Positions 10,694 to 56,709 of a stretch of DNA of 64,000 nt are shown here, piece after piece. Origin of the DNA: Escherichia coli (GTDB taxonomy: Bacteria > Pseudomonadota > Gammaproteobacteria > Enterobacterales > Enterobacteriaceae). Both the position numbers and the translations under genes were made by a program. The stretch lies in the NCBI RefSeq assembly GCF_030384885.1, contig NZ_CP128613.1; one strand, 5' to 3'. Every line of letters begins with the position of its first letter. The first letter of the stretch is position 1. Below the pieces are notes generated by a model, which saw only the letters and a program-made list of their open reading frames with translations, did no database searches and was not told the DNA's origin.

Positions 10694-10695
10694 AA

Positions 10696-10796
10696 CGTAG
10701 TCCGGATAAGGCGCTCGCGCCGCATCCGGCACTGTTGCCAAACTCCAGCACCGCAATAATGTCGGATGCGATGCTTGCGCATCTTATCCGACCTAC
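10696..10796. repeat. REP/BIME-type palindromic units (two, inverted)
   Basis: gtagtccggataaggcgctcgcgccgcatccggca and gtcggatgcgatgcttgcgcatcttatccgacctac. Confidence 0.6.
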
Positions 10797-11044
10797 ACCT
10801 TTGGTGTTACTCAAGGCGATTTTTTAACATTTCCATAAGTTACGCTTATTTAAAGCGTCGTGAATTTAATGGCGTAAATTCCTGCTATTTATTCGTTTGC
10901 TGAAGCGATTTCGCAGCATTTGACGTCATCGCTTTTACGTGGCTTTATAAAAGACGACGAAAAGCAAAGCCCGAGCATATTCGCGCCAATGCGACGTGAA
11001 GGATACAGGGCTATCAAACGATAAGATGGGGTGTCTGGGGTAAT

Positions 11045-31535: not shown

Positions 31536-31808
31536 AGGAAAAGCTGAAGGGCGTCAACCGAAAAATGACCAATGATGGTGAGGAAAAATCAGGGAAGATG
31601 AAAAAAATTCAGGATAAAGGCCAAAGTTCCTCGTACCTGAACATGTGGAATATACCTCATTTAAGATGATATTTATTTGTTTAATTATTTTTTCTATTAA
31701 CCGGTGCAACGAGTGTTAAAGCGTGTAATTTTAGGATTATATCAATAGTCACGGTTATACAAACAGTGATAATTTATGAAATAATTTTATTTACCAGAGG
31801 AATAGCGC

Positions 31809-32783
31809 ATGTATCTTAATACTCAAGTTCAATATAATAAGTTAAATAAAGATGAAAAAAAGATCCTGTTGTTACAAAAGCTAGCCCATTTAACTGATTT
31901 TACTTTTGACAGAATAGAGACATTTTCAGCATTTGGACAATCTACTGAAACAGGTGTTTTTAAATATAAAGATGGCAATGAATTTGTTGTTGTCCCCGGG
32001 GATACAGTAATATTAGGGTGGGATGCCAGTCTCAATAATATGGATGGTCCGACAAAACAAGAATTTGAAGAGATGTTGGAACCAGAAGGTTTAGATTTGA
32101 ATAATTATCTCACCGACTCTTGCACACCTGTCAGGAAGGTTACAATTTCCCCGATGCTGGTTGAAAGAAACGTTCACGCCGAACCAAGTTGGAAGGAAGT
32201 ATCTCTTACGGACCCCCGCATCACAGAGAACAGCATGCTGCAAAAATTTCTGTCTGATTATATGGAAAAAATTAATCCTGGAGTTCACGAATTAAACGCA
32301 AGATTGAGATTACAATATATAGATGGGGATTTATTTGCACAAATATATGAATCAATTAGCTATGATGAGTTACTTCAAAATATCCAAAGCAATAGTTTTG
32401 ATCTTCCGAGCGAAGATGAATGGGAATATTTATGTGGCGGTGGTTCCAGGACACTCTGGCGCTGGGGGAATAATTTCGACTATCAAATGAAAATCCCATT
32501 TATTACTTCAGAAGAACCAACAACCTGGGATATAGAATGGCCTAATCAGTTTGGGTTGCAGATTGCATTTGATCCCTATCTTCAGGAAATTATTAATGAT
32601 AAAGATATTCTTCTGAAAGGTGGCGATGGTGGGTGCAATCTCTGCGGAGGTGCTAATGTTGTATTAGGATTCTTGCCTGTGGCAACTTATTACAAAGGAT
32701 ATAATAAACATACGGACGAATTAGAATATATGGATGACATTGGAGACAATTATACTTCTTATCGCAGAATAATTCGTTTATGA
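31809..32783 (+). CDS. Hypothetical protein, AT-rich gene; weak FGE-sulfatase (SUMF1)-like motif
   Basis: 324 aa ORF with AGAGGA RBS; motif LPSEDEWEYLCGGGSRTLWRWGNNFD resembles the FGE-domain EWEY...GG core; no other FGE signatures recognised. Confidence 0.6.
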   Translation: MYLNTQVQYNKLNKDEKKILLLQKLAHLTDFTFDRIETFSAFGQSTETGVFKYKDGNEFVVVPGDTVILGWDASLNNMDGPTKQEFEEMLEPEGLDLNNYLTDSCTPVRKVTISPMLVERNVHAEPSWKEVSLTDPRITENSMLQKFLSDYMEKINPGVHELNARLRLQYIDGDLFAQIYESISYDELLQNIQSNSFDLPSEDEWEYLCGGGSRTLWRWGNNFDYQMKIPFITSEEPTTWDIEWPNQFGLQIAFDPYLQEIINDKDILLKGGDGGCNLCGGANVVLGFLPVATYYKGYNKHTDELEYMDDIGDNYTSYRRIIRL

Positions 32784-32864
32784 GTAAAAATTATATTTCA
32801 GGACAAGAAGTTATGCTCGAGTCAAGCTAATGAATTGCTTAACGCAAGGAATAAAAACGTATTG

Positions 32865-34346
32865 ATGAACACTGGGAATTTCGAGTCGATACAAATCATG
32901 ATCGCCGCGCAAGAGTGGCGTAGCCTGCCGCTGCATCTGCGTTTGTATCAGGCTTTTCGTCAGTTGGTGATTTCTGGCGCGTTGTCTGATGGCGCAAAAC
33001 TGCCGTCCGCTCGCGCACTGGCCCAGCAACTGCACCTTTCCAGAGATACCATCGAAAATGCCTATTCCCAGCTCCACCGCGACGGTTTTATGGCTCGCAG
33101 GCAGGGGGCCGGGAGTTTCGCCAGCCGCCAGGGGATACCGCATATTCAGGGCCAGCATGCGCAACCACCCTCGCCCGGACAAGTACCGGCTTTAAGCGCT
33201 CGCTGGCAGCCAATTGCCGATCGCGCAGTCTCTTTCGATGCCCGCCAGATGCAGACCTTTACGCTTGGCCTGCCGGAAACGCGAAACTTCCCGCTAAACA
33301 TTTGGCAGAACTTTTCCCGCCAGATCCAACGTGAGCAGGCGCATACGCTGATGTTAAATAGCGATCCGCAGGGCGAGCCACAGCTGCGCCAGCAAATTGC
33401 GCATTACCTTAATTTTGAACGCGGCGCGAAGGTAGATGCCGGGCAGATTGTGATTGTCAGCGGCGCACGGCAGGCGTTCTGGCTGTGCGGGCAACTGCTG
33501 GCAGAGGCCGGACAGTCGGTGGCGATGGAAAATCCGGGCTATCCCGGCGCGCGTCAGGCGTTTTCTGCCGCACAGCTTAATCTTCTTCCCGTTGAAGTGG
33601 ATGACGCCGGGATCCGGGTGGATAAACTGCCGCCCGCGCCGCTGGTTTACGTCACGCCCTCGCACCAGTTTCCTTCCGGTCATTTGCTCACGCTGGCGCG
33701 GCGTCATGCCCTGATTGCCTGGGCGCAGGCGCACAATGCATGGATTATCGAAGACGACTACGACAGCGAATTTCACTACACCAGCGCGCCCGTCGCCTGT
33801 CTGCAAGGGTTAGACTGCGAGCAACGCACCCTGTATGTCGGCACTTTCAGCAAAACGCTCTATCCCGGCCTGCGCATCGGTTATCTGGTGGTGCCGACGT
33901 CGCTGGCTGCGCACTTTGCCGCCGCGCGTAATTTGCTTGATGGCGCAACGCCTGCGTTATCCCAACTAACGCTGGCGCGATTTATCGAGTCCGGTCATTT
34001 TGCCGCCCATATTCGCAACATGCGCAGTATGTACGCAGTGCGACAGGCGAGCCTGGCAGAGGCTATTCATCAACACTTAAGTGAATGGGTCACGCCAGTG
34101 GTGACATCCGGTGGGTTACAAATGCCCTGCTGGCTGCATGAAGGTATTGATGAGCAACAGACGCTAAATGCCGCGCGCCGCGCCGGGTTAAACATCGCCG
34201 GAATGCGCCAGTTCTGGCTGACGCACCCCGCGCCCGCGGGCTGGCTGCTGGGATTTGCCGCCTTTACCCCCTACGAGATTGAACAGGGCGTCAAGCGTCT
34301 GCGGGCTGCATTATGCACTGAAAACGTGCGCCCAGCCGGGTCATAA
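32865..34346 (+). CDS. MocR/GntR-family regulator with fused PLP aminotransferase-like domain
   Basis: N-terminal GntR HTH (…LPSARALAQQLHLSRDTIENAYSQLHRDGFMARRQGAGSFAS…) and large C-terminal fold-type-I-like domain; start ambiguous (TTG 32835, ATG 32865 or 32898). Confidence 0.8.
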   Translation: MNTGNFESIQIMIAAQEWRSLPLHLRLYQAFRQLVISGALSDGAKLPSARALAQQLHLSRDTIENAYSQLHRDGFMARRQGAGSFASRQGIPHIQGQHAQPPSPGQVPALSARWQPIADRAVSFDARQMQTFTLGLPETRNFPLNIWQNFSRQIQREQAHTLMLNSDPQGEPQLRQQIAHYLNFERGAKVDAGQIVIVSGARQAFWLCGQLLAEAGQSVAMENPGYPGARQAFSAAQLNLLPVEVDDAGIRVDKLPPAPLVYVTPSHQFPSGHLLTLARRHALIAWAQAHNAWIIEDDYDSEFHYTSAPVACLQGLDCEQRTLYVGTFSKTLYPGLRIGYLVVPTSLAAHFAAARNLLDGATPALSQLTLARFIESGHFAAHIRNMRSMYAVRQASLAEAIHQHLSEWVTPVVTSGGLQMPCWLHEGIDEQQTLNAARRAGLNIAGMRQFWLTHPAPAGWLLGFAAFTPYEIEQGVKRLRAALCTENVRPAGS

Positions 34347-35397
34347 TCTCATACGGGATGGTGTTGCAGGCAGCGGCAACCTGTTCCAGCGTCTGGCCTG
34401 CGCCAATAAATTCCACCTTATCGCCCGCTGTCGGCGTGACGGCGCTGGCATCGACCATAAAGCTGTCCATACAAACCCGCCCCAATACCGGTAACCGCAC
34501 GCCGCGCCAGCATACGCCCGCCGGAGGACGCATATTTCGCGGAACGCCATCCGCGTAACCCGCGGATATCGTAGCGATACGCAGCGGACGCGTGGCGGTA
34601 ATCGTACTGCCATAGCCAACTGGCGTTCCCGCCGGGACATCCTGCACGCGCAGAATAGTTAGCGTCAGCGTAAAAGCCGGTTTTAGCGGCCTGGAAAACC
34701 ACGGCTGGGCGACGCCAAACAGCGCAATCCCCGGACGGCAGAGATCTTCCCGCCAACCTGGTTGCAAAAACATTCCGCAGGAGTTCGCCAGCGAAAATCG
34801 GCTGCTGGGGAAAACCGTTTTTGCCTGCTGGAATAGCGCGTGTTGCGCCACATTTAACGCATGATCCGGCCTGTCGGCGTTCGCCAGATGGCTGATGATA
34901 TAGTCCGGCGCAGGCCAGTTACGCTCACGAAATATCGCCGCCAGACGCATCAGTTGTTGCGGCATCACGCCCAGCCGCGACATACCGGAATCGAGCTGGA
35001 TCATCACCGCACGCCGCTGCTGGCGCGTTTCCAGTAACGTAAGCCACGCCATCACCTGGTCAATGGAATTGAGCAATGGCGTGATCTGCTGCGCGTAACA
35101 ATACGCCATCGCCTCCGGCATAACCCCATTAAGCACTACCACCATCGCATCAGTGGGCAGGATTTTACGCAGCGCCACGCCCTCCGAAAGCTGTGCCACA
35201 AAAAAGATCCGGCAGTTCGCCGCATACAGGGCGGGCGCAATCGCCTCCGCCCCCAGACCATAGGCATTGGCTTTCAACACCGCGCCACATTGCGCAGGGG
35301 CAACATGGCGCGCCAGCGTGCGATAATTATCGACGATGGCGGCGAGATTGACGCACATAACGCCGCACGCCGCCTGGATTTCAGTAGAAGTCATCAT
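34291..35397 (-). CDS. Alanine racemase-family PLP enzyme (fold type III)
   Basis: PLP-lysine motif AVLKANAYGLGA and C-terminal GRVCMDSFMVD motif; start ATG overlaps the stop of the upstream SHMT-like gene (ATGA). Confidence 0.85.
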   Translation of the reverse strand: MMTSTEIQAACGVMCVNLAAIVDNYRTLARHVAPAQCGAVLKANAYGLGAEAIAPALYAANCRIFFVAQLSEGVALRKILPTDAMVVVLNGVMPEAMAYCYAQQITPLLNSIDQVMAWLTLLETRQQRRAVMIQLDSGMSRLGVMPQQLMRLAAIFRERNWPAPDYIISHLANADRPDHALNVAQHALFQQAKTVFPSSRFSLANSCGMFLQPGWREDLCRPGIALFGVAQPWFSRPLKPAFTLTLTILRVQDVPAGTPVGYGSTITATRPLRIATISAGYADGVPRNMRPPAGVCWRGVRLPVLGRVCMDSFMVDASAVTPTAGDKVEFIGAGQTLEQVAAACNTIPYEIMTRLGARFQCIMQPADA

Positions 35398-36632
35398 TGA
35401 TAAGACAACGGGTAGCGGTTGGTTAGTTGTATTACTTTTTGCTCAATATCGGCGCAAATGCCTGCGATATCTGACGAGTTGATGGCGAAAATGATTTCAC
35501 TTATCCAGTCAGCAATAAGCACAAAATCATCCGCCTTCATCCCACGCGTGGTGCAGGCCGCGCTGCCAATACGGACCCCGGAGGTAATCGACGGCGGCTG
35601 CGGATCGCCCGGCAGGGTGTTTTTATTGACCGTGATCCCCGCCAGTTCGAGAAAGTACTCCACCTGTGCGCCGGTTAACCCCTGCGGGCGCAGGTCGATA
35701 ATCCCCAGATGGCAGTCGGTGCCGCCCGTTAACAGCGTCAGACCGCGCTGCGCCAGTTGCTGGCACATCGCCTGCGCATTGTCGATAACCTACCCGGCGT
35801 AACGTTTAAATTCTGGTTGTAATGCCTCGCCAAGCGCCACCGCTTTCGCCGCGATAACGTGCATCAACGGCCCGCCCTGCAAACCGGGAAAGATGGCGCT
35901 GTCGATTTTTTTCGCAAGCCTGGCGTCATTGGTGAGGATCATGCCGCCGCGCGGCCCGCGCAACGTTTTATGCGTGGTGGTGGTGACCACATCAGCATAC
36001 GCCAGCGGCGAAGGAAAACAGCCGCCCGCCACCAGCCCGGCAAAGTGCGCCATATCCACCAGCAAAATGGCATCAACGGCATCGGCAATGCGGCGAAAAC
36101 GGGCAAAATCATAGTGGCGTGGATAAGCCGATCCTCCGGCAATAATTAACCGTGGGCGCTCGCGTAGCGCGATCATCTCGACCTCATCCATATCAATCAG
36201 GCCACTATGGGCATCGACGCCATAGTGAAAGGCGTTAAACCATTTGCCGGATTGATTGACCGGAGAACCGTGCGTGAGATGCCCGCCGCATTGCAGGCTC
36301 ATGCCAAGAATTTTGTCGCCGGGCTTCAGCAACGCCAGATAGACCGCCTGATTCGCCTGGCTGCCGGAGTGAGGCTGCACATTGACGTAACGCGCGCCAA
36401 AGAGCTGCTGCGCGCGGGTTATCGCCAGCATCTCAACCTCATCAATAAACTTACAGCCGCCGTAATAGCGATGCTGGTAATAACCTTCGGCGTATTTATT
36501 GGTTAACACCGACCCCTGCGCCGCGAGAACGGCGGGGCTTACGAAATTCTCCGAGGCAATCAGTTCCAGCGACTGCTGCTGGCGCTGTTGCTCCTGGTTA
36601 ATCAATGCAAAAAGTGGATCGTTATTTATCAT
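35394..36632 (-). pseudogene. Serine hydroxymethyltransferase (GlyA)-like gene interrupted by an in-frame TAG at 35790-35792
   Basis: N-terminal ORF (…[31 protein letters not shown]…[14 protein letters not shown]…PEFKRYAG*) and C-terminal ORF (VIDNAQAM…TSGVRIGSAA…) are in the same frame, separated only by TAG where GlyA has Gln. Confidence 0.75.
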
Positions 36633-36864
36633 GCGCTTCCCCCGCAAATTCATCATGCGATGATTTTCGCAGGGAAAACCTCGTCCGCACCCTGCCACTT
36701 TTTAGACTGAGCGCAGACCACCTATGTCGTTTTACTTAAAAGAAGAGGGAAGAAGGCTCCAGGCATCTCCATATGCGATTCTGGTTGGTAATACATCATA
36801 TTCCAGCTGCTCTTATCCGCCTACGTTATTGCATATACGGATAAGGCAGCCTCAATACGTACTT

Positions 36865-38430
36865 TTACTTGATATCTTTCACGCGCATACCGTTGATCTG
36901 TTCATCCGTGATGGTATTACCCGCTTTAAAGTAATCAACCACCGCGTGATAAACGTAATAACCGCCCGTCGTATTGCGCGCTTTACCCTCGGTAAACGCG
37001 GTAAAACCATCTCCACCATCAGCAAGGAAACTCTGAGTGGCAATGTGGTAAACCGTCGCATCTTCAATCGGTTCGCCATTCAGAGTCAGCGAGATAACCC
37101 GCTGACCAACCGGCTTGCTGCTGTCGTACTTCATTTCCAGGCCTTTCGATACCTGTAAAACGCCATTACTTAAACTTGCGCCGTGTTCCATCAAACTGCG
37201 TAATTGTTTACCCGTGAGTTCCATCGTCACCAGTTCGTTGGGGAACGGGAAGGTACTGATGACGCCACCCATCGTAATTGCACCCGCCGGGATCTCATTG
37301 CGGATACCGCCAGAGTTGGTTAACGCCAACTGGGTATTTTTACCCGCCGCTGCCAGCAAAGCGTCCGCCGCCAGATTCCCGAGAGAAGCCGATTCACCAT
37401 AGGCACGTTTCAATTCAACTGGCGATTGCGCCACCGTTTGCTGCACGACTTCATCCAGCTTTTTATTCCAACTATCAATCACCTGTTTTGTTTGCGGATC
37501 GGGCTTCCACTCGTCGGCGTAAAGGGTTTTAAGCTCGAAGTTTTTCACCGTAAAAGTGTGCGGCTTCTCTTTGTAGTCTAGAACCAGTTTACCCACATCA
37601 ATCCCGCCGCTGTCAGTGGAGAGGATTAACGTATTGCCGACTTTAATCGGTTCCGGCGTACCCACATGTGCATGCCCGGTGATCAAAATATCCAGCCCTT
37701 TCACCTGACTTGCCGTCTGAATATCTTTATCCAGTGCGCGGCGCACATCTGTGCCCCCCATACTGGACTGGCGGGCCGGAACACCTTCGTGAATCAGCGC
37801 AACGGTCAAATCAACCTTGCCTTTGAGTTCATCGATATAACGTTGTAGCCATTTAATTTCATCACGCGCCTCAATACCCACTCGCGTTGCCGCAGATACC
37901 GTATCATTAAAGGCAAATACACCGTGCAAACCAATCACGCCAATTTTCACGCCGTCTTTTTCAATGATGGTATAGGGCTTATCCCAGAATGATTTACTGC
38001 TGTTCTGATAAAAAACATTACCCTGCACAATCGGGAATTTTGCCTGACTCAACTGTAATAACGTATTGTCCCAGCCGTGATCAAATTCATGATTACCTAT
38101 AGTGGCCGCATCGAACGGCATGGTATTCATAATATCGATAATCGCCTTGCCTTTAGTCAGGCTGCTAATATACGGCCCGGTAAAATAGTCACCCGCATCA
38201 AAAAACCAGGTCGCTTTGTTTTTAGCTTTTTCTTGTTTAACAAGCGTAGTGATATTTGCCCAGCCGCCAATATCTCGTTTACCGTCAGCAATCCACGGCA
38301 CTTTATAAGGCTCTACATGTGCATGGAGGTCGTTGGTATAAATGATGGTGACATCTTTGGCGCAAGCCCAAAACGGCAGTGTTAATGCGATACCCGCAGC
38401 AAGCATTTTAATTTTCATAAACAATCCCAT
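36865..38430 (-). CDS. UshA/CpdB-family periplasmic nucleotidase (paralog A)
   Basis: Signal peptide [20 protein letters not shown]; metallophosphatase motifs [26 protein letters not shown]; C-terminal 5'-nucleotidase-type domain (…[13 protein letters not shown]…). Confidence 0.85.
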
Positions 38431-38550
38431 CCAGTGAGATAAAGGATTGCTACATTACGTTCTGAAAGGCTTTTTTATGTGAGAATACTCACATCCAGAG
38501 GCGATAACTGTAGGACAAAATCAACGACCTTATGAAATCGTTGGTGATAT

Positions 38551-39678
38551 ATGTCAAATCTGTTTGCGATTAATGTCTGTAAAACGTTCGGTTGTCGAAA
38601 TTTGGGATTGGCCTCATCGGAAGATTACAGTTGGCCAGACTATAAACTGGGTTTTCCGGCACTGCACTGCCAGGCATGCGGAAGTTACCCCCCTTTGTTT
38701 GATGAACAACAATTTCGTGACTGGTTGTCAGTTCACATGACTGCGTGTGCCATAGAAACAGGGCATTTTTGTCCATCATGCTATTGTAAAGAAAAGATTT
38801 TTTATGGCCACAACCCGCAGGGAACACAACGCGTTCAATGCCGTTCATGCAAAAAAGTCTGGACTCCGAAACAGCAGCCAGCAAGAGAAATTACGTATCC
38901 CCAGTCCATTGAAACCGTTCAACTGTTCATGCCCTTTCAAGGAGCCAGCGCAGTACAAAAGCTCTATGTTTTAGTCAGTCTTGACGCCACTCGTGGCAAC
39001 ATCCTTCATCTCTCCACGAATTATACGCAACATCAGACAGGAGACAGTCTGCGGTACAGTTACAGAGGCAATACAGAACCAACTGAGCACCATAGCGATA
39101 TTGCGCAGAGGGTAGATATGCGTGAAGCACAATTCTTGCGCCGGAGCCAGTTCGATGAAATTCAGTATGGCAGTGCTGTGCTCAAGCGCAACGGCAAGGG
39201 AGCCATACTACGCCCGGTTATCACGGCACACGGGCATTTCAGAATACTGAAAATCCGCTTTCCACATGTCAAAACGCATATCATTTCACACGAATGTTTT
39301 CTGAGAGGCGCAATTATTACAGCCTGGGCAGATCAGTTCCGCCAACAACAAGGCGAACTTTGGTTCGTAGAGGAAGAAATCAGCGACCGTAATGCTGATA
39401 TTCCCTGGCATTTTCAGGGAACGACATACCATGGTTGGTGGCAAAATCAGTGGCAACGCTGGGGGCAGGGGAATAACAGCAAGATGGTCTGCCTGCTCAC
39501 AGGAGTCTCCTTAGAAAGGGGCGCAAATGTTTCTCTGGCAACCAGTCGTTGCTTTATCACATGGCTGACAGACCAACACGACTTTACCCAAAGCGCGTTA
39601 TTATCCGCAGGTCGCGTAACGAAAATGCTGACCTCACTGGCGTTAAAATACAATGAATCGCTCACTCCATCTTGTTAG
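38551..39678 (+). CDS. Hypothetical cysteine-rich protein with N-terminal zinc-ribbon motifs (transposase-like zinc ribbon?)
   Basis: 375 aa; C-x4-C, C-x2-C, C-x2-C…C-x2-C spacing including FYGHNPQGTQRVQCRSCKKVW, resembling IS1 InsA / IS1595-type ribbons; remainder unassigned. Confidence 0.6.
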   Translation: MSNLFAINVCKTFGCRNLGLASSEDYSWPDYKLGFPALHCQACGSYPPLFDEQQFRDWLSVHMTACAIETGHFCPSCYCKEKIFYGHNPQGTQRVQCRSCKKVWTPKQQPAREITYPQSIETVQLFMPFQGASAVQKLYVLVSLDATRGNILHLSTNYTQHQTGDSLRYSYRGNTEPTEHHSDIAQRVDMREAQFLRRSQFDEIQYGSAVLKRNGKGAILRPVITAHGHFRILKIRFPHVKTHIISHECFLRGAIITAWADQFRQQQGELWFVEEEISDRNADIPWHFQGTTYHGWWQNQWQRWGQGNNSKMVCLLTGVSLERGANVSLATSRCFITWLTDQHDFTQSALLSAGRVTKMLTSLALKYNESLTPSC

Positions 39679-39907
39679 TCAATACACTCGACAAACGACC
39701 ATAAATTAATGGGATCACTATTTCTCATTTAATTAAATATATGAATGTATGACTGAAAAATATAATCACAGTCAATGTTTAATTAATAACATTATTTGTT
39801 ACTAAGATCACATAATACTTTCCTGACCTATGTTTACATAAAAATAAGACACGGTGTTCCTTTTATTTAAATAATTCAACCAATGTAACAACCCCTATCA
39901 AGGAGGG

Positions 39908-41461
39908 ATGATGAGAACTGTATTTACGACTTTATCAGTCATATTCAGCGTGATGTTTTCTCACAGTATACTAGCTCAGGACGTTACTATTTATTATACG
40001 AATGATATTCACGCACATGTCAATCCGGCAAAAATTCCCGCTGTTGATAAGAACAGACTTGTAGGTGGTATGGCTAATATTGCAGGCATCGTTAATGAAG
40101 CGAAGAAAAAAAACAAAGATGTCTTTTTCTTTGATGCAGGCGACTATTTTACCGGTCCGTATATCAGTACCCTGACCAAAGGTGAAGCTATTATTGATAT
40201 CATGAACACCATGCCCTTTGATGCGGTGTCCGTTGGTAATCACGAGTTCGATCACGGCGTGCCCAATATGGTATCTCAGTTATCAAAAGCAAAATTCCCC
40301 ATTCTGCTGGGAAATATTTACTACACCGATACAAATAAACCAGTTTGGGATCATCCGTGGACCATTATCGAAAAAGATGGTTTAAAGATTGGTGTGATTG
40401 GATTGCATGGTGCATTCGCTTTCTATGATACAGTCGCGGCAAAAGCACGTGAAGGCGTAGAAGCCAGAGACGAAATTAAATATTTAAATAAAGCACTTGC
40501 AGAATTAAAAGGTAAAGTCGACATTACCGTTTTGCTAATTCACGAAGGTGTTCCGGCGCGTCAATCAAGCTTTGGTAGTAAAGATGTGGAGCGGCTACTA
40601 CAGGCAGATATTGAGACAGCTAAAAAAGTGAATGGTGTTGATGTCTTAATTACCGGTCACGCACATGTCGGAACACCGCAACCAATAAAAGTTAATAACA
40701 CATTAATTGTATCTACCGATGCATACGGCACCGACATCGGAAAACTTGTGCTTGATTACAATCCGAAAACAAAGAAAATTGATAGTTATAATGGTGAGTT
40801 AATCACCATCTTTGCAGATCAATTTAAACCTGACACCATCGTTCAAAATACTATCGATAAATGGAGCATAAAGCTTAACAAAATAACACAGGAAGTTGTC
40901 GGCCATTCTCCCGTAGTTTTAACACGTGAGTATGGCAGTTCTTCTTCTACCGGTAACCTTATTCTAGATGCAATGATGGAAAAAACACCTGATGCCATTG
41001 CCGGATTTCAAAATAGCGGTGGGATGCGAGCTGATTTTCCTAAAGGTGATATCACACTGGGAGATGTTATTAGCACATTCCCCTTTAATAATGACCTCAT
41101 CGAGATGGATTTGACGGGCCGCGATCTCAAATCATTGATGACGCATGCAACCAATCTAACTAACGGTGTGTTACAGGTTTCAAAAAGCGTTGCGGTTGTC
41201 TATGACAGCAAAAAACCACTCAACCAACGGTTAATCTCTTTCACCATTAACGGCAAACCCGTGGAAGATAATCAAACATATCGTATTGCCACGCACTCCT
41301 TTTGTGCCAGTGGTGGTGACGGTTTTGAAGCATTTTTGAATGGAAAAAATGTGAAGACGATACCGGGAACAACCTCGGCGGAATCTATCATCGATTATTT
41401 CAAAAATCATAAACCTGTCACCCCAGACTTAACTAAACGAGTCATGGACGTCGCCAAATAA
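39908..41461 (+). CDS. UshA/CpdB-family periplasmic nucleotidase (paralog B, most divergent)
   Basis: Signal peptide, same metallophosphatase motif set ([26 protein letters not shown]); AGGAGG RBS at 39901. Confidence 0.85.
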   Translation: MMRTVFTTLSVIFSVMFSHSILAQDVTIYYTNDIHAHVNPAKIPAVDKNRLVGGMANIAGIVNEAKKKNKDVFFFDAGDYFTGPYISTLTKGEAIIDIMNTMPFDAVSVGNHEFDHGVPNMVSQLSKAKFPILLGNIYYTDTNKPVWDHPWTIIEKDGLKIGVIGLHGAFAFYDTVAAKAREGVEARDEIKYLNKALAELKGKVDITVLLIHEGVPARQSSFGSKDVERLLQADIETAKKVNGVDVLITGHAHVGTPQPIKVNNTLIVSTDAYGTDIGKLVLDYNPKTKKIDSYNGELITIFADQFKPDTIVQNTIDKWSIKLNKITQEVVGHSPVVLTREYGSSSSTGNLILDAMMEKTPDAIAGFQNSGGMRADFPKGDITLGDVISTFPFNNDLIEMDLTGRDLKSLMTHATNLTNGVLQVSKSVAVVYDSKKPLNQRLISFTINGKPVEDNQTYRIATHSFCASGGDGFEAFLNGKNVKTIPGTTSAESIIDYFKNHKPVTPDLTKRVMDVAK

Positions 41462-41495
41462 AATATCATTTATCAGTCTATTTATTTAACAAGGA

Positions 41496-43121
41496 ATGCG
41501 AATGAAAACAGTGCAGCGTACTTTACTTGCCGCAACATTGCTGACTATTTTTTCGGTCTCGGTCATGGCGCAGGATGTCACGATTATTTATACAAATGAT
41601 CTTCACGCTCATGTGGATTCTTATAAAGTGCCGTATATCGCAGACGGAAAACGCGACATTGGCGGCTTTGCCAATATATCTACTTTAGTAAAACAAGAGA
41701 AAGCGAAAAATAAAGCCACCTTTTATTTTGATGCTGGAGACTATTTCACCGGCCCTTATATCAGCAGTCTGACAAAGGGCGAAGCAATAATTGACATTAT
41801 GAATACCATGCCTTTTGACGCAGTATCAATCGGTAATCATGAGTTTGACCATGGCTGGGATAATGCCCTGCGACAATTAAGCAAAGCGAATTTTCCTGTT
41901 TTATTGGGCAATGTTTATCATAAAGAGAGTGAAAAACCCTTCTGGAACAAGCCCTACACCATCCTGGAAAAAGATGGCATCAAGATTGGTATTATTGGGC
42001 TACACGGCGTATTTGCATTTAATGATACGGTCTCGGAGCTCTCTCTCCAGGGACTCGATAATGACAATAATAACCGCTTTGATAAATCTTCCGAGACCCT
42101 TAAGAATCAGGGGATTGAAGCACGTGATGAAGTGAAGTATTTGCAGCATTATATCGACGAGTTACGTGATAAGGTTGACCTCACTGTGGCGCTGGTTCAT
42201 GAAGGCGTTCCGGCGCGTCAGTCCAGCATTGGCAATACAGATGTTAGACGCGCTCTTGATAAAGATATTCAAACCGCTAGCAAGGTGAAAGGATTGGATA
42301 TTCTGATTACCGGGCATGCCCACGTCGGAACGCCAGAACCAATCAAAGTCGGCAACACCTTAATCCTTTCGACTGATAGTGGCGGTATCGATATTGGTAA
42401 ATTAGTCCTTGATGTCAACCCTACAGCTCGTACCCATAAAATGAAGAGCTTTGAGCTGAAAACAGTTTATGCCGATGAATGGATACCCGATCCAACGACA
42501 CAAAAAGTTATCAATGGCTGGAATAAAAAACTGGCGGATATTGTACGCCAACCAGTGGGTGAATCATCGATTGCATTAACTCGCGCCTATGGTGAGTCAT
42601 CGCAACTAGGCAACCTGTTTACCGATGCAATGCTTGTCGCTGCTCCGACTGCACAGATTGCATTGATAAACTCCGGCAGCTTACGTGCGGATATAAATGC
42701 AGGCACGATTACCTTTGGCGACATTACCAGTACATTCCCCTTCAAGAATGAACTTACTGAAATGGATCTCAGCGGTAAGGATCTGCGTAACCTACTGGAA
42801 CACGGGGCATCGCTTACCAATGGCATCCTGCAAATGTCAAAAGGCGCAGAAATGCGCTATACCCCGCAGAAACCAGTAGGTCAGCGCATAGTATCTTTTA
42901 AAATTAATGGTGAAGAGATCGTTGATACGAATATTTACCATGTTGCAACAACGACTTTCCTTGCACTGGGGGGCGATGGTTTTCTGGCATTCAAAGAAGG
43001 GAAAAATGTTCAGGTCCGCGCCGGAAAAAACATGTCCGATGTCGTGATCGATTATTTGAAGAAAGGCCACAAGATTACGCCTGCACAGGTAAATGAAATG
43101 CGGGTGGACGTTAGCAAATAA
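41496..43121 (+). CDS. UshA/CpdB-family periplasmic nucleotidase (paralog C, with ~27 aa Asn/Asp-rich insert)
   Basis: Signal peptide; same motif set; insert ELSLQGLDNDNNNRFDKSSETLKNQG absent from paralogs A and B; real start probably ATG 41502. Confidence 0.85.
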   Translation: MRMKTVQRTLLAATLLTIFSVSVMAQDVTIIYTNDLHAHVDSYKVPYIADGKRDIGGFANISTLVKQEKAKNKATFYFDAGDYFTGPYISSLTKGEAIIDIMNTMPFDAVSIGNHEFDHGWDNALRQLSKANFPVLLGNVYHKESEKPFWNKPYTILEKDGIKIGIIGLHGVFAFNDTVSELSLQGLDNDNNNRFDKSSETLKNQGIEARDEVKYLQHYIDELRDKVDLTVALVHEGVPARQSSIGNTDVRRALDKDIQTASKVKGLDILITGHAHVGTPEPIKVGNTLILSTDSGGIDIGKLVLDVNPTARTHKMKSFELKTVYADEWIPDPTTQKVINGWNKKLADIVRQPVGESSIALTRAYGESSQLGNLFTDAMLVAAPTAQIALINSGSLRADINAGTITFGDITSTFPFKNELTEMDLSGKDLRNLLEHGASLTNGILQMSKGAEMRYTPQKPVGQRIVSFKINGEEIVDTNIYHVATTTFLALGGDGFLAFKEGKNVQVRAGKNMSDVVIDYLKKGHKITPAQVNEMRVDVSK

Positions 43122-43133
43122 TAAAAAAATTAT

Positions 43134-43165
43134 AATGCCATTCATTCACTGAATGGCATTATTTT
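43134..43165 (+). terminator. Terminator-like hairpin after nucleotidase paralog C
   Basis: atgccattca-ttcac-tgaatggcat followed by T-rich tract. Confidence 0.5.
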
Positions 43166-43198
43166 CTCTAAATCAACAATAGATAATGAGATATATTT

Positions 43199-44059
43199 AT
43201 GTGTATAAAAAAGCACGGGATAGCTTTATCGATTCTATTAATACCTTGCATTGGAAACGCTCAGAAAATTAAAAGTGAGGAAGGCTGGTTACATCAAAGC
43301 TTGAATGTCATTGGTCGCACAGACTCTCGCTTTGGCCCAAGGCTGACTAACGACCTCTACCCTGAATATACTGTAGCAGGAAGAAAAGACTGGTTTGATT
43401 TTTATGGTTATGTTGATCTACCAAAATTCTTTGGCGTCGGCAGTCACTATGATGTTGGGATCTGGGATGAGGGCTCACCACTATTTACGGAAATAGAACC
43501 TCGGTTTTCCATTGACAAATTGACCGGATTAAATCTTGCGTTCGGCCCTTTTAAAGAATGGTTCATTGCAAACAACTATGTCTATGATATGGGTGACAAC
43601 CAGTCATCCCGGCAAAGTACATGGTATATGGGGCTTGGTACAGATATCGACACGGGTCTACCAATTAAGCTTTCTGCCAATATATACGCCAAGTATCAGT
43701 GGCAAAACTATGGTGCCGCTAATGAAAATGAATGGGACGGATATCGATTCAAAATAAAATATAGCATTCCTCTTACCCATTTATTCGGAGGGCGATTGGT
43801 ATACAATAGTTTTACTAACTTTGATTTTGGATCCGATCTTGCGGACAAATCACACAATAATAAACGAACCAGTAATGCTATTGCTTCAAGCCATATCCTT
43901 TCCCTGCTATATGAACACTGGAAATTTGCATTTACACTACGTTATTTTCACAACGGTGGACAATGGAATGCTGGGGAGAAAGTTAACTTCGGAGATGGTC
44001 CATTTGAATTAAAAAACACAGGATGGGGAACCTATACTACTATTGGTTATCAATTTTAA
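43199..44059 (+). CDS. Tsx-family nucleoside-specific outer-membrane channel paralog
   Basis: Signal peptide, C-terminal Phe; long colinear blocks matching Tsx as recalled (…KDWFDFYGY…[12 protein letters not shown]…[14 protein letters not shown]…[26 protein letters not shown]…). Confidence 0.85.
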
Positions 44060-44275
44060 ATCAGGTGATGTTTTAGATATTTTTACTTAATGCCATTTTG
44101 TAATTGTCATAAATAACTTCACCATTCACACTGTGAATTCATCGCTCAACACAAAAGCCCCCTTATTACCGGGGCACTGACCAAAGGCAAAATGACAATC
44201 AATCACCACCTCCGCAGGAGGTGGTTTAGAGGTGACAACAAAAGCTGGCAACTGCCAGCTTTTGTTCAATAATCA

Positions 44276-49225: not shown

Positions 49226-50362
49226 TTACGAAAGCCCGCTCCCAGCAAGGACTGACGCCAGATACTTTCTGTCCATGGCTGCTTTTCGCATCTTACGTCT
49301 TAACCCTGCCTTGAATACCTTATCATTCGTTAAAATATTAATAGCGATGTGCCGTATCCCTGAAAATAATTCTGCGGCGTTTCCTCTTCGTATTTTGCAG
49401 TCGTCTTCATTCATTACCACGTCCAGACGCCAGTGCAGCTTATTCTCCACGTGCCAGTGGTTTCGGATTGCTGTGGCGAACTTTTCTGCGGTTAAATCAG
49501 CAGAACTGATATAATATCTGACCGTCATTTCTGGCTCTTTCTTTTGTTCTGCTATTATTGACCGAAAGGAGAATGCCACGCATAATTTCTTCAGTCCTTT
49601 CCATTCAAACGTGAAATCAATAAGTTCATCACGGACATCGCAAACAATATGAAGACGGATTTCTTCTCTGCCGTGACTCTTTTCACTCATTGCGTAACTG
49701 TCATGCTCTGGATTATTTAATTCTTTCAGCGGAAATTTTTCCTCGAAGGCTTTATTTAGCCGCCCCTGGTTTCCTTTTACAGCGAATACATAATCACCGC
49801 CCTGTTTTTGTATCTTCTCTGCAATATCTTTCTGGCAACCCATCGCATCAGTTGTGATGATTTTTCCTTTAATATCCAGCATGTTAAGAAGTTCAGGGAT
49901 AGCTGTAATTTCATTGGATTTCTCATCCGTCCTGATCTGTCCGATGACCAGACTGTGCATTGTTGAGAATGCACTAATGACATGAATCGCTCCCCTGCGG
50001 CGACTCTTGTCATAAGAATGCCGGAGTGTTTTTCCATCAATTGCGATGACGTCTTTATCATCTGAAGTATGGCAATCTCGCATCCAGTTAATAAAGCACT
50101 CGTGAAATTTTGAAGGACTGATACAGGATACAACTCTGGCGATGGTATCGTGAACAGGAATACCATTTTCAAAATCACCATATTGTTTTAAAAAATCGCG
50201 ATGTGCTTCCCCAAAATCCTCTATATGTTCCCAGCCTTCTGCACCAGAAATAACGGCGCAAATAGTCAACAGTAGAATATCCGATAATTTATGTTCCACT
50301 TTCCAGGTTTGTCTGTAATCGGGGATAATAGAAATATGTTCCATCAATTTTTTAAGTTCCAT
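49226..50362 (-). mobile_element. H-repeat-associated (ISAs1-family) transposase gene, intact ORF
   Basis: 378 aa, [59 protein letters not shown]... matches Rhs-associated H-rpt proteins as recalled; element ends not mapped. Confidence 0.8.
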
Positions 50363-50469
50363 TCTTTTCTCCTTAATTATGTAAGGAGTATTTGATCATG
50401 TATAAGCAATAAAAAAACAGCTTCAGGCAATGAGGAATATCTCAATTTTTAAACATAAAATGCGAATTG

Positions 50470-50905
50470 TTTAGTACAAAAAAGCAGCGTTAAGTGAGTA
50501 GGCCACCGGAACCTCCCCGACAGCCTCTCGCAGAACCGTACGTGAAACTCTCGCTTCATACGGCTCCCGTCAGGCAAACGCGCTTCCTGGTCCTGCTTTC
50601 CAGTGGGCAAACAACTCCGGCTTCTCTTTTGACAGCCTTTCCATTAGCTGACACGCCTTCGTCTTTCTATACCGCAGGGTTTTATATTTCTTTCTCGCCC
50701 ACGCAATCAGCGTCAGATTAATATATCTGCATACTTTCTTCATCGCTGATTTGTGGTATCTCGCGTAATAATTCAGCCACCCCAATATTATCGGATTCAG
50801 CCACTTCGCAATATCTTCGAGACTCATCTCCACCCTGCGTCTGATCCACAGTTTCCTGAGTTTTCCAATCATGCCTTCGGGTTTACTCATCTCACTGTAT
50901 CTCAC
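50470..50905 (-). mobile_element. Group II intron 3' remnant: maturase C-terminal fragment plus domain V
   Basis: ORF fragment has maturase motif WLNPIILGWLNYYARY; just downstream, minus-strand 50566-50533 reads GAGCCGTATGAAGCGAGAGTTTCACGTACGGTTC, a 34-nt domain-V-type hairpin. Confidence 0.6.
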
Positions 50906-51111
50906 ATAGGATCAGATCTCGTCTGATCGTTCCCCCTGCGCTCACTACCATGGCTCTTTACCACAGCAGCCGGGGTTGTTTGGGACCGACTTCCGACAGC
51001 AGATCCCGGTGGGCCTGCCACCATCTCTTCACAAGCTTATGCTTATTACATGCAAAACGTCCCGTTTTGCATCTTTGTGCCTACGGCACACCGTGATCTT
51101 TCCCTGTCGGC

Positions 51112-51330
51112 ATGTTGACCACTGACGAATGGGGTAGTTACGCTAGAGAGTTACCAAAGGAGAAGCATCTGACTGGTAAGATTTTTACTCAGCATATTGA
51201 GCGTAACAATCTGACCCTGAGAACCCGAATCAAACGTCTGGCCCGCAGAACCATCTGTTTCTCGCGTTCTGTAGAACTTCATGAAAAAGTCATCGGTGCT
51301 TTTATCGAAAATATATGTTCTACTAATTGG
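51112..51330 (+). pseudogene. IS1-family InsB transposase C-terminal fragment
   Basis: …DEWGSYARELPKEKHLTGKIFTQHIERNNLTLRTRIKRLARRTICFSRSVELHEKVIG… parallels the InsB C-terminus (…[37 protein letters not shown]…); no N-terminal part present. Confidence 0.6.
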
Positions 51331-51395
51331 AGTCATCACCCTTCTGATGAGCTTTCCTTGGATGATTACCAGACTGAATACATAGCCAAAGATTT

Positions 51396-51755
51396 TTACC
51401 TCATTCTGCTTTTTTTTCTCAAATGACATATATTATATTTTACATCATATTCATAGGCATATGACATTCCCCCGCCCCCCATTATGTCATTGTGGGTTGA
51501 TGTTGGGCTTTCATAAAAAAATACATCTTTTTTTGAACTAGCATTAATTATATTTACTTTATATATTAAAATATTTTCTCCATCTGGAAATATTTTAGCC
51601 ACACAATATAAAGCAGCCAAATCCGAATTACTTAAAAATATATTGTCATCACTCATAACTCCAGCCATTAAATGACTGGAGACTAAAGCAAGGAAATAAC
51701 AACATTGTATTGCCTTCATTTTAATTACTCCCTTGCCTGATAATTGTAACTCCAT
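51396..51755 (-). CDS. Putative Rhs-toxin immunity protein (secreted/membrane-anchored); 3' end may be truncated by the IS1 fragment
   Basis: ORF directly downstream of and overlapping the Rhs C-terminal tip; internal start [21 protein letters not shown] looks like a signal peptide; AT-rich. Confidence 0.45.
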
Positions 51756-52275
51756 TCCCTTTAGCTTTGGGATTATATTTTAGATAGGTGTTATTTGGTG
51801 TTCCCAAGTAACTACTGTATTCTTTTTTTCCCATTCCATTCATATAAGAATTCGTTAAATCTTTGCTTGAAAAATTTAGACTATCATAAACATCATTTTC
51901 TTTTGTTACTTTATTTCCTTTATCGTCAGAGTAAAAACCGTGAGTGTGATAATCGCCTACTCTCTCTGAACCTTCAGGGCATTTTATATTTCGCAAGTCT
52001 ACACTATCATTATCATTTGAACTTATCGGATTCATGGGGAAATATTCACCTTGCTTCTTACATATTAGTCCACCATATTCTTTATTCTCGTTAATTGATT
52101 CTCCATTACACATTGCCAATGCAAATATTCCAATATCATCTATATTTTTTGATTTAAATTCATATAATCCTAATGGATCCATGCCATTCACCGGGCTCAG
52201 CGGATATGTATACAGGTTCCATCCCCCCTTCAGCCCAATCGGATCCTGAGTGATATACCGCCCCTGTAACCGTCC
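51721..52275 (-). pseudogene. Rhs core-end plus C-terminal toxin tip (RhsA-CT-like), detached from any intact rhs core
   Basis: Open frame reads [36 protein letters not shown]…; tip contains [16 protein letters not shown], resembling the K-12 RhsA C-terminal region as recalled. Confidence 0.6.
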
Positions 52276-52664
52276 TCACCGGGAAACAGGTGCTCAAAAT
52301 ACAGGCTTCTGCCGCCGTTATCACTGAGTATCAGAGTGTTATCGCGCAGCTGCAAGCGGATATCCGCAGGCATTTTCCAGCCGGGGCCGAGGCTCCCCAC
52401 CGGCGCGGGCGTTTTTGTCCGGTAACTGCTGTAGGTGCGGGAGAGGATGAACGGCAGCGGGCCGGGCAGGGCAAGGTCGGTTTCGCCGGGAAGGACCTTC
52501 GCACCGAGCAGCGGATTGACCGGATGGCCGGACGTCACCCCGCCGGGGCACACCGAACAGGCCACGCCGGTGGGGGCACCAATACGTACCCCGGCAGAAC
52601 CCTGGACAATGGGGCCACCATACTGCGTCATGTCGCCCTGACGCGCCGCCGGTTTTCCGCTCAT
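52230..52664 (-). pseudogene. Rhs N-terminal fragment (PAAR-like region), 144 codons then stop
   Basis: MSGKPAARQGDMTQYGGPIVQGSAGVRIGAPTGVACSVCPGG… matches Rhs N-termini; frame differs from the downstream core-end/CT frame. Confidence 0.7.
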
Positions 52665-52783
52665 CGTAAAATCCTTTTAAAATAAATAAGAACCAGAAGC
52701 CTAGCGCCAGTCAACAACAGGAAATGATAATGAGTTAACACCCCGGAATGTTTCAGAATTTATAAAAGGCAAATTACAGGCAC

Positions 52784-52811
52784 AAAAAAAGCGCCGTGCG
52801 GCGCTTTTTTC
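52784..52811 (-). terminator. rpmE rho-independent terminator
   Basis: aaaaaaagcgccg-tgc-ggcgcttttttc; on the minus strand the hairpin is followed by a T-run. Confidence 0.6.
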
Positions 52812-52823
52812 GGAAATCCGGTC

Positions 52824-53075
<252 letters not shown>

Positions 53076-53079
53076 CTAA

Positions 53080-55437
<2,358 letters not shown>

Positions 55438-55592
55438 TGCGCAAACGATGCGAGGCGGATCGAAAAATTCAATATTCATCACACTTTTCATGAAAATTCT
55501 GTAACCGTTTTCACGCGCTATCTGCTAAAAATGTTGCCGATGTGAAGTAAACATGGAAGTAGTACGCCTGCCGTGCCGGGCGAGGAGTGAGT

Positions 55593-56618
55593 GTGAAAGC
55601 GAAGAAGCAGGAAACTGCCGCGACCATGAAAGACGTTGCCCTGAAGGCAAAAGTCTCTACAGCGACCGTCTCCCGAGCATTAATGAATCCCGATAAAGTC
55701 TCCCAGGCCACCCGTAATCGGGTTGAAAAAGCGGCCCGGGAAGTAGGTTATTTGCCGCAGCCTATGGGGCGCAACGTCAAACGTAATGAATCCCGCACCA
55801 TTCTGGTGATTGTCCCGGATATCTGCGATCCCTTCTTTAGCGAAATTATTCGCGGTATCGAAGTTACGGCGGCAAATCACGGATATCTGGTGCTGATTGG
55901 CGACTGTGCGCATCAAAATCAGCAGGAAAAAACCTTTATCGATTTGATTATCACCAAGCAAATTGATGGCATGTTGCTGCTGGGTTCAAGGCTGCCGTTT
56001 GATGCCAGCATTGAGGAACAGCGTAATCTGCCGCCGATGGTGATGGCGAACGAATTTGCGCCGGAACTGGAGCTGCCTACAGTTCATATCGACAATCTGA
56101 CCGCCGCATTTGATGCAGTAAATTATTTATATGAGCAAGGTCATAAACGGATTGGCTGTATAGCCGGTCCCGAAGAGATGCCGCTGTGTCACTACCGCCT
56201 GCAAGGCTACGTTCAGGCGCTGCGTCGCTGCGGCATTATGGTTGATCCGCAATACATCGCCCGGGGCGACTTCTCCTTTGAAGCCGGAAGCAAAGCGATG
56301 CAACAGCTGCTTGCTCTTCCGCAACCGCCTACTGCTGTCTTCTGCCATAGCGATGTAATGGCGCTCGGCGCACTTTCTCAGGCAAAACGCCAGGGGCTGA
56401 AAGTCCCGGAAGACCTTTCCATAATCGGTTTTGATAACATCGACCTGACGCAATTTTGTGATCCGCCGCTGACAACCATCGCGCAGCCGCGTTACGAAAT
56501 CGGTCGGGAAGCTATGCTGTTATTGCTTGATCAAATGCAGGGGCAACACGTTGGCAGTGGCTCTCGTTTAATGGACTGCGAACTTATCATCCGGGGATCA
56601 ACGCGCGCGTTACCTTAA
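55593..56618 (+). CDS. cytR: LacI-family transcriptional repressor CytR
   Basis: GTG start after GAGGAG RBS; VKAKKQETAATMKDVALKAKVSTATVSRAL… HTH. Confidence 0.92.
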   Translation: MKAKKQETAATMKDVALKAKVSTATVSRALMNPDKVSQATRNRVEKAAREVGYLPQPMGRNVKRNESRTILVIVPDICDPFFSEIIRGIEVTAANHGYLVLIGDCAHQNQQEKTFIDLIITKQIDGMLLLGSRLPFDASIEEQRNLPPMVMANEFAPELELPTVHIDNLTAAFDAVNYLYEQGHKRIGCIAGPEEMPLCHYRLQGYVQALRRCGIMVDPQYIARGDFSFEAGSKAMQQLLALPQPPTAVFCHSDVMALGALSQAKRQGLKVPEDLSIIGFDNIDLTQFCDPPLTTIAQPRYEIGREAMLLLLDQMQGQHVGSGSRLMDCELIIRGSTRALP

Positions 56619-56709
56619 AGTAAACCTTTAAGACTGCCGTGACTGGTCAAAGGCCCGCCGCTTAAGTAACATGGCGGGCTGACGAACGAATAAATACAGC
56701 GAAACGATA

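Follow-up and report, generated by a model that had tools for sequence, protein, structure and literature searches.

We analysed a 64,000-nucleotide stretch of Escherichia coli DNA (contig NZ_CP128613.1, assembly GCF_030384885.1; hereafter the window) carrying a second gene for a Tsx-family outer-membrane channel, here termed tsx2. The gene lies at 43199–44059 on the forward strand, where an ATG-to-stop open reading frame (ORF) spans exactly these positions and encodes a 286-amino acid (aa) precursor. It corresponds to c4894 (C_RS23130) of strain CFT073 and is identical to the coding sequence called by the Prokaryotic Genome Annotation Pipeline (PGAP) in strain 2013C-4282 (NZ_CP027579.1), which shares 100% identity with the window over tsx2. 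tsx2 is the final gene, between nt3 and metL, of a 12.7-kb island (31616–44275) whose breakpoints were set by blastn against K-12 and which replaces ~190 bp of the K-12 metL–metF spacer. The GC content of the island is ~41–51%, and ~41–43% in its nucleotidase-tsx2 part, compared to 52–56% in the flanks. Its conserved core comprises, in order, nt1 (reverse strand), a gene for a 375-aa protein (forward strand), nt2, nt3 and tsx2 (forward strand), with nt1–nt3 being paralogous genes for exported 5'-nucleotidases. This order is identical in CFT073 and, at the same metF–metL site, in Citrobacter enshiensis. The same island, with the same gene, is c4894–c4898 of CFT073 and has been published as GR31 (metL..metF) of the avian pathogenic E. 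coli (APEC) strain BEN2908 and of B2 extraintestinal pathogenic (ExPEC) and adherent-invasive (AIEC) strains, together with the same functional idea (PMC12928451, a 2026 paper). In comparison to GR31 and CFT073, the window strain has an extra 5 kb between metF and nt1. As RefSeq also annotates tsx2 as 'nucleoside-specific channel-forming protein Tsx', both the object and the hypothesis are already known.

tsx2 is a genuine, intact and diverged paralog of Tsx. Its product matched Pfam PF03502 (Channel_Tsx; E = 4.9e-70, 236.5 bits against a cut-off of 27.2) over profile positions 4–244 of 244, and NCBIfam NF011686 (Tsx; 492.3 bits against a cut-off of 311) over positions 6–289 of 289, with no other NCBIfam match. 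The Tsx structures in the PDB (1TLW, 1TLY and 1TLZ) were matched at E = 1e-114. K-12 Tsx (b0411) is a nucleoside-specific outer-membrane channel that phage T6, colicin K and albicidin use as their receptor; BLASTP against it showed 65% identity along a colinear stretch of 262 residues, broken by a 1-aa insertion and a 5-aa deletion. These results uphold the initial annotation, made from the sequence alone, which had described a match to Tsx over long colinear blocks and proposed alignment with both Tsx and OmpK; the Tsx half of that comparison was run, and agreed. Vibrio OmpK, the Tsx-family receptor of phage KVP40, shares the Pfam Channel_Tsx domain with tsx2. The protein scored within the enterobacterial Tsx subfamily (NF011686) and is much closer to Tsx than OmpK is; it was not aligned with OmpK directly.

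Judged by eye, the N-terminus of the precursor combines a basic n-region with a hydrophobic core of 13 residues and Gly/Ala as small residues at −3 and −1, predicting a Sec signal peptide of residues 1–21 (43199–43261, forward strand) cleaved before Gln22. Residues 1–26 were also the sole disordered stretch (pLDDT < 50) of an AlphaFold2 model, and alignment with mature Tsx begins at residue 28–30. The C-terminal aromatic beta-signal reads TIGYQF, ending in Phe, where Tsx has GYNF. Both outer-membrane targeting signals recorded initially, the cleavable signal peptide and the terminal Phe, hence appear to be present. The model itself, built on 47 homologs (pLDDT 86.4, pTM 0.82), contained 12 long strands. 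Its top Foldseek matches in the PDB were 1tlw_A and 1tlw_B (E = 5e-34; TM-score 0.92, target-normalised; rmsd 1.6 Å), with the next matches at TM ≤ 0.6, and the predicted fold is consistent with the monomeric 12-stranded barrel of 1TLY/1TLW.

Two other explanations of the gene, both foreseen in the initial annotation, were discarded. A pseudogene or disrupted beta-barrel is ruled out by the intact ORF, the 12 predicted strands, the TM-score to 1TLW and purifying selection (see below). A relocated housekeeping tsx is ruled out by the identity of only 65%, the different locus and the presence of the canonical copy in the same strain, where it is retained between yajI and yajD; tsx2 lacks the yajI-tsx-yajD synteny of canonical orthologues. 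The two proteins share, besides sequence identity, the predicted barrel, the transport residues, the signal peptide and the terminal Phe. They differ in context, with K-12 tsx standing alone between yajI and yajD and tsx2 placed in a putative nucleotidase operon in the metF–metL island, and in prevalence (>99.9% of genomes for tsx versus 12% for tsx2). Relative to K-12 Tsx, the mature N-terminus of tsx2 is 4–5 residues shorter, the loop at 198–207 is 5 residues shorter, and substitutions include N254P, R32T, E40T, H228K, V232T and L37P.

The channel core of tsx2 is conserved. Mutation of Phe27, Gly28, Ser217, Gly239 or Gly240 abolishes nucleoside transport by Tsx (PMC6499177), and all five residues are unchanged in tsx2 and in its CFT073 and C. 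enshiensis copies. Likewise, 131 of the 150 positions that are strongly conserved (≥90%) in 101 canonical-type Tsx sequences are retained. Lumen-facing positions were picked from the model strands with a hydrophobicity-parity rule, a crude proxy that does not use coordinates. Nearly all strand positions assigned to the lumen in this way, with their aromatic and polar lining, are identical between tsx2 and canonical Tsx, which argues for a nucleoside-shaped substrate. Differences cluster at S22R, H24D, E40T, S138K, N180R, H228K, V232T and V267T. By the same parity proxy, the net charge of the lumen-assigned strand positions is −2 in the canonical consensus, +2 in the tsx2 clade and +1 in a related group, type B (described below). 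The whole-protein net charge of tsx2 is −6, compared to −8.1 ± 2.7 for canonical Tsx.

In contrast to the channel core, which is kept, most of the mapped T6 receptor determinants have changed. Recognition by phage T6 depends on loop residues 198–207, Asn249 and Asn254 of Tsx (PMC6499177), and a Tsx R32P mutant is resistant to T6, U115 and albicidin (PMC8245764). tsx2 lacks five of the ten residues of loop 198–207 and has substitutions at most of the rest, their number depending on the alignment; N254P and R32T are present, and N249 alone is kept. The same loop is gapped in ~64 of the 101 canonical-type sequences, making the state of tsx2 the commonest in the family. On this sequence comparison, function of tsx2 as a T6 receptor is doubtful. 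Colicin K is still bound by Tsx of other genera, so its binding may have been retained.

Of 5426 complete E. coli genomes, 660 (~12%) carry tsx2, always on the chromosome and in single copy, and 658 of the 660 have it at full length. Canonical tsx occurred in 5424 of the 5426, with 663 additional weaker places, a number close to that of the tsx2 carriers. The protein shares 97.6% identity with its CFT073 copy; its nearest relative outside E. coli is that of C. enshiensis (85%), with everything else at ≤69%. The ratio of nonsynonymous to synonymous divergence (dN/dS) was 0.13 between the window and CFT073 and 0.05 between the window and C. enshiensis (dS ~1.6), demonstrating strong purifying selection. 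Between E. coli and C. enshiensis, dS was 1.0–1.6 for the nucleotidase genes and tsx2 and 1.0 for the flanking metL. No terminal inverted or direct repeats were found at the ends of the CFT073 island, where the only long inverted repeats were the nucleotidase paralogs themselves, and no plasmid copy of tsx2 above 68% identity was found. A plasmid-borne or recently mobile tsx2 was rejected on these observations. Together, the metL-like dS, the lack of end repeats and the lack of a plasmid copy fit long residence of the island at the metF–metL site, despite its low GC content, with loss from most E. coli, and not a recent import.

Neighbour joining of 120 Tsx sequences, without bootstrap, set a single clade apart from canonical Enterobacterales Tsx; it consists of the tsx2 and type-B clades together with a third, small group (P0004/P0013). 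This clade shares derived states at positions that are 92–100% invariant in the 101 canonical-type sequences: L37P, V232T, V267T and the loss of both E40 and H228. Canonical Glu40 and His228 are invariant in 100 and 101 of the 101, respectively, and the three paralog sub-lineages carry T40/K228, R40/N or S228, and T or V40/K or R228 instead. The third group has no nucleotidase linkage. Type-B Tsx (293 aa; P0076, P0087, L005–L008) shares L37P, V232T, V267T and the loss of E40 and H228 with tsx2, at 57–59% identity, and strays further from the canonical sequence at functional positions (S217T, N249F, W149G, I31K).

We further investigated the linkage between Tsx and the nucleotidases by scanning one genome per species in GTDB with the nt1–nt3 alignment and searching the resulting 77 loci for the other genes of the module. 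Among these loci, only E. coli and C. enshiensis had the architecture of the window (type A). Another arrangement, type B, was found in Enterobacter asburiae, a Citrobacter sp., E. albertii and an 'E. coli' species representative, and look-ups from the Tsx side added Enterobacter hormaechei and Citrobacter freundii. Type-B modules likewise start with a divergent zinc-ribbon protein (371–391 aa) followed by 5'-nucleotidase paralogs, in the order 375-aa homolog (reverse strand), nt1, one or two nt2-like genes, the 293-aa Tsx and nt3. Unlike tsx2, the channel gene stands between nucleotidase genes and is not the last gene, and the modules occupy other chromosomal sites. This bears out the initial description of a diverged paralog adjoining secreted nucleotidases: three exported 5'-nucleotidase genes are present here, and the linkage recurs in C. 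enshiensis and in type B. No locus from SAR86, Bacteroidota, Acidobacteriota, Paenibacillus, Vibrio or Cetobacterium had this nucleotidase subfamily next to Tsx. tsx2 would belong, as judged from these comparisons, to an old Tsx paralog lineage of Enterobacteriaceae that travels with a nucleotidase and zinc-ribbon module. The age and repeated retention of the linkage support functional coupling of the Tsx paralog and the nucleotidases beyond mere adjacency.

Multiplicity of Tsx is common in Enterobacteriaceae and largely unstudied. This included a 282-aa paralog (positions 10001–10849 of locus L004) with 68% identity to tsx2, located between sprT/endA and an MFS transporter/metK and unlinked to nucleotidases; a 285-aa E. 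coli form (P0117) with 55% identity; and several forms in Salmonella enterica (P0110, P0086).

The three nucleotidase genes are nt1 (36865–38418, reverse strand), nt2 (39908–41461, forward strand; PGAP start at 39911), which is the first gene of the putative nt2-nt3-tsx2 operon, and nt3 (41496–43121, forward strand; PGAP start at 41502), with gaps of 34 bp between nt2 and nt3 and 77 bp between nt3 and tsx2. Each product combines a PF00149 metallophosphatase domain (Metallophos) with a PF02872 5'-nucleotidase C-terminal domain (5_nucleotid_C) and a signal peptide. Their mutual identity is 56–69% (nt3/nt1 69%, nt2/nt3 56%). All three fell below every NCBIfam equivalog cut-off (for UshA, 152–165 bits against the 600 needed) and are therefore a separate subfamily, not orthologues of UshA, CpdB or NadN; identity to YfkN is ~27%. 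Relatives with 41–55% identity occur in SAR86, Bacteroidota/Saprospiraceae, Acidobacteriota (Pyrinomonadaceae), Vibrio and Cetobacterium, and the three proteins are much nearer to these distant relatives than to E. coli UshA. The structure of nt1 is in effect already solved, at ~98% identity (1111 bits to PDB 3IVD/3IVE, entries named 'Nucleotidase'). We take 3IVD to be the structural-genomics entry for c4898 of CFT073, with uridine or cytidine bound; a literature search for 3IVD and c4898 returned nothing useful.

From reading their sequences, nt1–nt3 carry Sec-type signal peptides with predicted signal peptidase I sites (A|QD and ACA|KD, nt3 reading SVSVMA|QD), and no clear lipobox was seen in any of the three signal peptides. 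The 3IVD chain starts two residues upstream of the predicted ACA|KD site of nt1. Lipoprotein or surface-anchored nucleotidases were considered and rejected, as FWAC in nt1 is non-canonical and alignment with nt2 and nt3 puts an AXA site after ACA. Given Sec signal peptides without a convincing lipobox, the three enzymes are most likely periplasmic, like UshA.

The remaining core gene (38551–39678, forward strand) encodes a Cys-rich 375-aa protein divergent from nt1 and annotated only as 'cytoplasmic protein'. It contains four invariant or near-invariant Cys pairs and a conserved C-terminal part, and the InsA, IS1-type zinc ribbon PF03811 was detected in 11 of 19 homologs (best E = 4e-8). Foldseek against the PDB gave weak RNase H-like matches only (EndoV/PIWI; TM 0.2–0.3), none at E ≤ 0.001. 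Across many genera of Enterobacteriaceae, the gene is always paired divergently with an nt1-type gene, which it adjoins at more than 25 loci. Its product is a candidate regulator, which may be transposase-derived.

Candidate regulatory sequences within the module were also conserved. A perfect CRP core, TGTGAGAATACTCACA (38478–38493), lies in the divergent promoter region of nt1 and the 375-aa gene. No other exact TGTGA-N6-TCACA occurs in the 64-kb window, for which 0.07 were expected, and loci of Citrobacter, Enterobacter and other Escherichia have the site at the corresponding position, exact or with one to two bases changed. An inverted repeat, CAACGA-N10-TCGTTG (38522–38543), just upstream of the 375-aa gene, is kept in all seven genus-level comparisons listed and is a candidate operator or 5' untranslated region hairpin. 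Upstream of nt2 (39774–39813, forward strand), the palindrome AATGTT-TAATTAAT-AACATT, with an 8-nt spacer, is followed by a CRP-like TGTTA-N6-TCACA. The ~45-bp block containing both is almost invariant between E. coli and C. enshiensis, whereas the rest of the spacer has diverged, and the AATGTT-N8-AACATT palindrome was found here alone among 1.4 Mb of loci. A CytR-like protein or the 375-aa protein are our guesses for what binds it. No Pho box was seen by eye upstream of nt2, leaving phosphate-starvation control unsupported.

Between nt3 and tsx2 is a terminator-like hairpin with a 13-bp stem (43132–43162, forward strand) and a short T-run behind it. The stem is kept in CFT073 and C. enshiensis with two compensatory pairs, across three sequences only, and may be a partial terminator or a transcript stabiliser. 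Given this conserved hairpin, transcription may continue into tsx2 in a fixed proportion of cases, or the gene may be partly under its own control. TosR is a PapB-family regulator. Overexpression of tosR in CFT073 raised c4894 by a log2 fold-change of 3.3, placing it among the 25 most induced genes, a table that lists neither c4895 nor c4896 (PMC5956150). C_RS23130, equated with c4894 in that paper, is the metL-adjacent gene in the CFT073 annotation, and a search of that work for the other island genes returned nothing useful.

Elsewhere in the window, the 5-kb addition between metF and nt1 (31616–36860) was covered to at least 80% in just 2 of the 5426 complete E. coli genomes. It encodes a 324-aa hypothetical protein with a weak FGE-sulfatase match, a GntR-plus-aminotransferase (MocR-type) regulator and an alanine racemase, and it also contains a serine hydroxymethyltransferase pseudogene that is interrupted by an internal stop. 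Downstream of yiiX, at ~49226–57200, mobile or selfish elements are clustered that CFT073 lacks at that position: an ISAs1 transposase, a group II intron reverse transcriptase/maturase (ltrA), part of an IS1, and the core protein of an RHS element, followed by its small ORF. In CFT073, cytR is ~8 kb from the island (cytR-priA-rpmE-yiiX-metJ-metB-metL-island), and the orthologous region lies near the right end of the window. CytR represses the nucleoside-catabolism regulon, including canonical tsx, and the proximity of its gene is probably a coincidence.

Taken together, we think it probable, with moderate confidence, that tsx2 is a working Tsx-type nucleoside channel, co-regulated by cyclic AMP (cAMP)-CRP with periplasmic nucleotidases as a scavenging module. 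tsx2 would be an accessory second copy of a functional, 12-stranded, substrate-specific diffusion channel of the outer membrane. The module would probably be turned on by cAMP-CRP, i.e. under carbon limitation. Free nucleosides would then pass the outer membrane via tsx2, and nucleotides would enter via porins (or tsx2) to be dephosphorylated by nt1–nt3, two parallel routes that would raise the periplasmic nucleoside pool for import by housekeeping inner-membrane transporters. Exported nucleotidases that turn impermeant nucleotides into importable nucleosides are familiar from UshA of E. coli and from NadN, fed by a porin, of Haemophilus influenzae. In those systems channel and enzyme are encoded apart, whereas here three paralogous enzymes are genetically coupled to a Tsx-type channel.

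Several points weigh against this reading. The proposed role of tsx2 draws on sequence comparison and a structural model, which show family membership, fold, a conserved channel core, purifying selection and the conservation of gene linkage and CRP-type sites; expression as a unit, periplasmic location, specificity for nucleosides and the physiological role are inferred from these. The hairpin with its T-run and the appearance of c4894 alone in the TosR table mean that co-transcription of nt2, nt3 and tsx2 is not established, and the operon is a putative one. The pair of nt1 and the divergent 375-aa gene occurs without Tsx in many genera (Citrobacter, Kluyvera, Phytobacter, Kosakonia, Pluralibacter, Rahnella, Pseudocitrobacter, Superficieibacter, E. 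whittamii and Enterobacter cloacae), making the channel an optional add-on. The predicted lumen, more positive than the canonical one, hints at a changed, possibly anionic, substrate. Finally, periplasmic nucleotidases would put an outer-membrane nucleoside channel outside their pathway, and parallel routes explain the linkage only loosely. The last point also weakens the initial proposal that the channel takes up the product of the nucleotidases: as these are most likely periplasmic, the nucleoside would be formed inside the outer membrane already and would not need an outer-membrane channel to reach the cell.

This topology problem would be solved if tsx2 and its sister lineage had been retuned to admit the phosphorylated substrates of the nucleotidases across the outer membrane, such as nucleoside monophosphates, dinucleotides, or NAD- or UDP-sugar-like compounds. 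The same logic applies to the porin that feeds NadN in Haemophilus. Sec export of the enzymes, with the 3IVD construct starting near the cleavage site, accords with this proposal, which would also account for a channel gene embedded among nucleotidase genes in two independent architectures. Moreover, all three paralog sub-lineages swap canonical Glu40/His228 for a net-positive combination, and the lumen-facing charge shifts from −2 to +2 in tsx2 and +1 in type B. That estimate, however, derives from hydrophobicity parity and not from coordinates, and the whole-protein charge lies inside the canonical range. The unchanged channel core and five transport-critical residues argue for the same nucleoside-sized substrate, and general porins already pass nucleotides. 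We therefore consider a substrate-admitting channel unlikely, although not negligibly so. Its extension, in which the nucleotidase-linked paralogs (tsx2 and type B) form a distinct 'Tsx-II' class with a lumen retuned at Glu40/His228 and elsewhere, conducting phosphorylated nucleosides or another anionic nucleotide-like nutrient to dedicated periplasmic nucleotidases as a unit under cAMP-CRP and a transposase-derived InsA zinc-ribbon regulator, is quite unlikely in our judgement.

The absence of tsx2 from 88% of complete E. coli genomes would sit well with a paralog that does the same job as Tsx, is silenced in an AT-rich island and owes its linkage to shared island inheritance. A GC content of 41–43% is typical of H-NS-silenced DNA, induction by TosR overexpression is the sole expression datum, and the nucleotidase/375-aa pair is widespread without Tsx. 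Such a redundant or rarely expressed copy is nevertheless hard to reconcile with strong purifying selection across saturated synonymous divergence (dS 1.6, dN/dS 0.05), with a linkage that persists elsewhere on the chromosome in the type-B architecture, with lineage-specific changes at canonical-invariant sites, and with conserved regulatory motifs; we rate it very unlikely. Selection for altered phage or colicin susceptibility, with tsx2 as a decoy or as an alternative receptor replacing Tsx function when phage pressure leads to loss of tsx, we judge to be scarcely probable. T6-like phages, colicin K and albicidin all use Tsx as their receptor, and cells usually become resistant by losing tsx (PMC8245764). 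A paralog with its channel residues kept and its receptor determinants changed could let nucleoside uptake persist in a tsx-null, phage-resistant cell. There is no sign of diversifying selection, however (dN/dS 0.13 within E. coli), the 198–207 state of tsx2 is the commonest in the family, and the conserved nucleotidase linkage would be left unexplained; a literature search on Tsx paralogs as phage receptors returned nothing useful.

To what was already known of the island, our analysis adds a paralog lineage defined by shared synapomorphies, a second architecture, conserved CRP-type and operator-like sites, a conserved zinc-ribbon partner, the topology caveat and the loss of T6 determinants. 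If the nucleoside channel and its nucleotidases are active as proposed, ~12% of E. coli would possess a carbon-limitation-induced means of feeding on extracellular nucleotides and nucleosides, compounds in which inflamed or necrotic tissue, urine and gut mucus are rich. Carriers include the B2 ExPEC, APEC and AIEC strains compared in PMC12928451. Should the Tsx-II interpretation hold instead, the island would represent a self-contained system for nucleotide utilisation that extends from the outer membrane to the periplasm and is enriched in ExPEC. Where tsx2 is carried, mutants that have lost tsx function under selection from Tsx-dependent phages or albicidin could retain nucleoside uptake, remain albicidin-sensitive or be open to other phages, which is relevant for predictions on phage therapy and albicidin resistance drawn from K-12.

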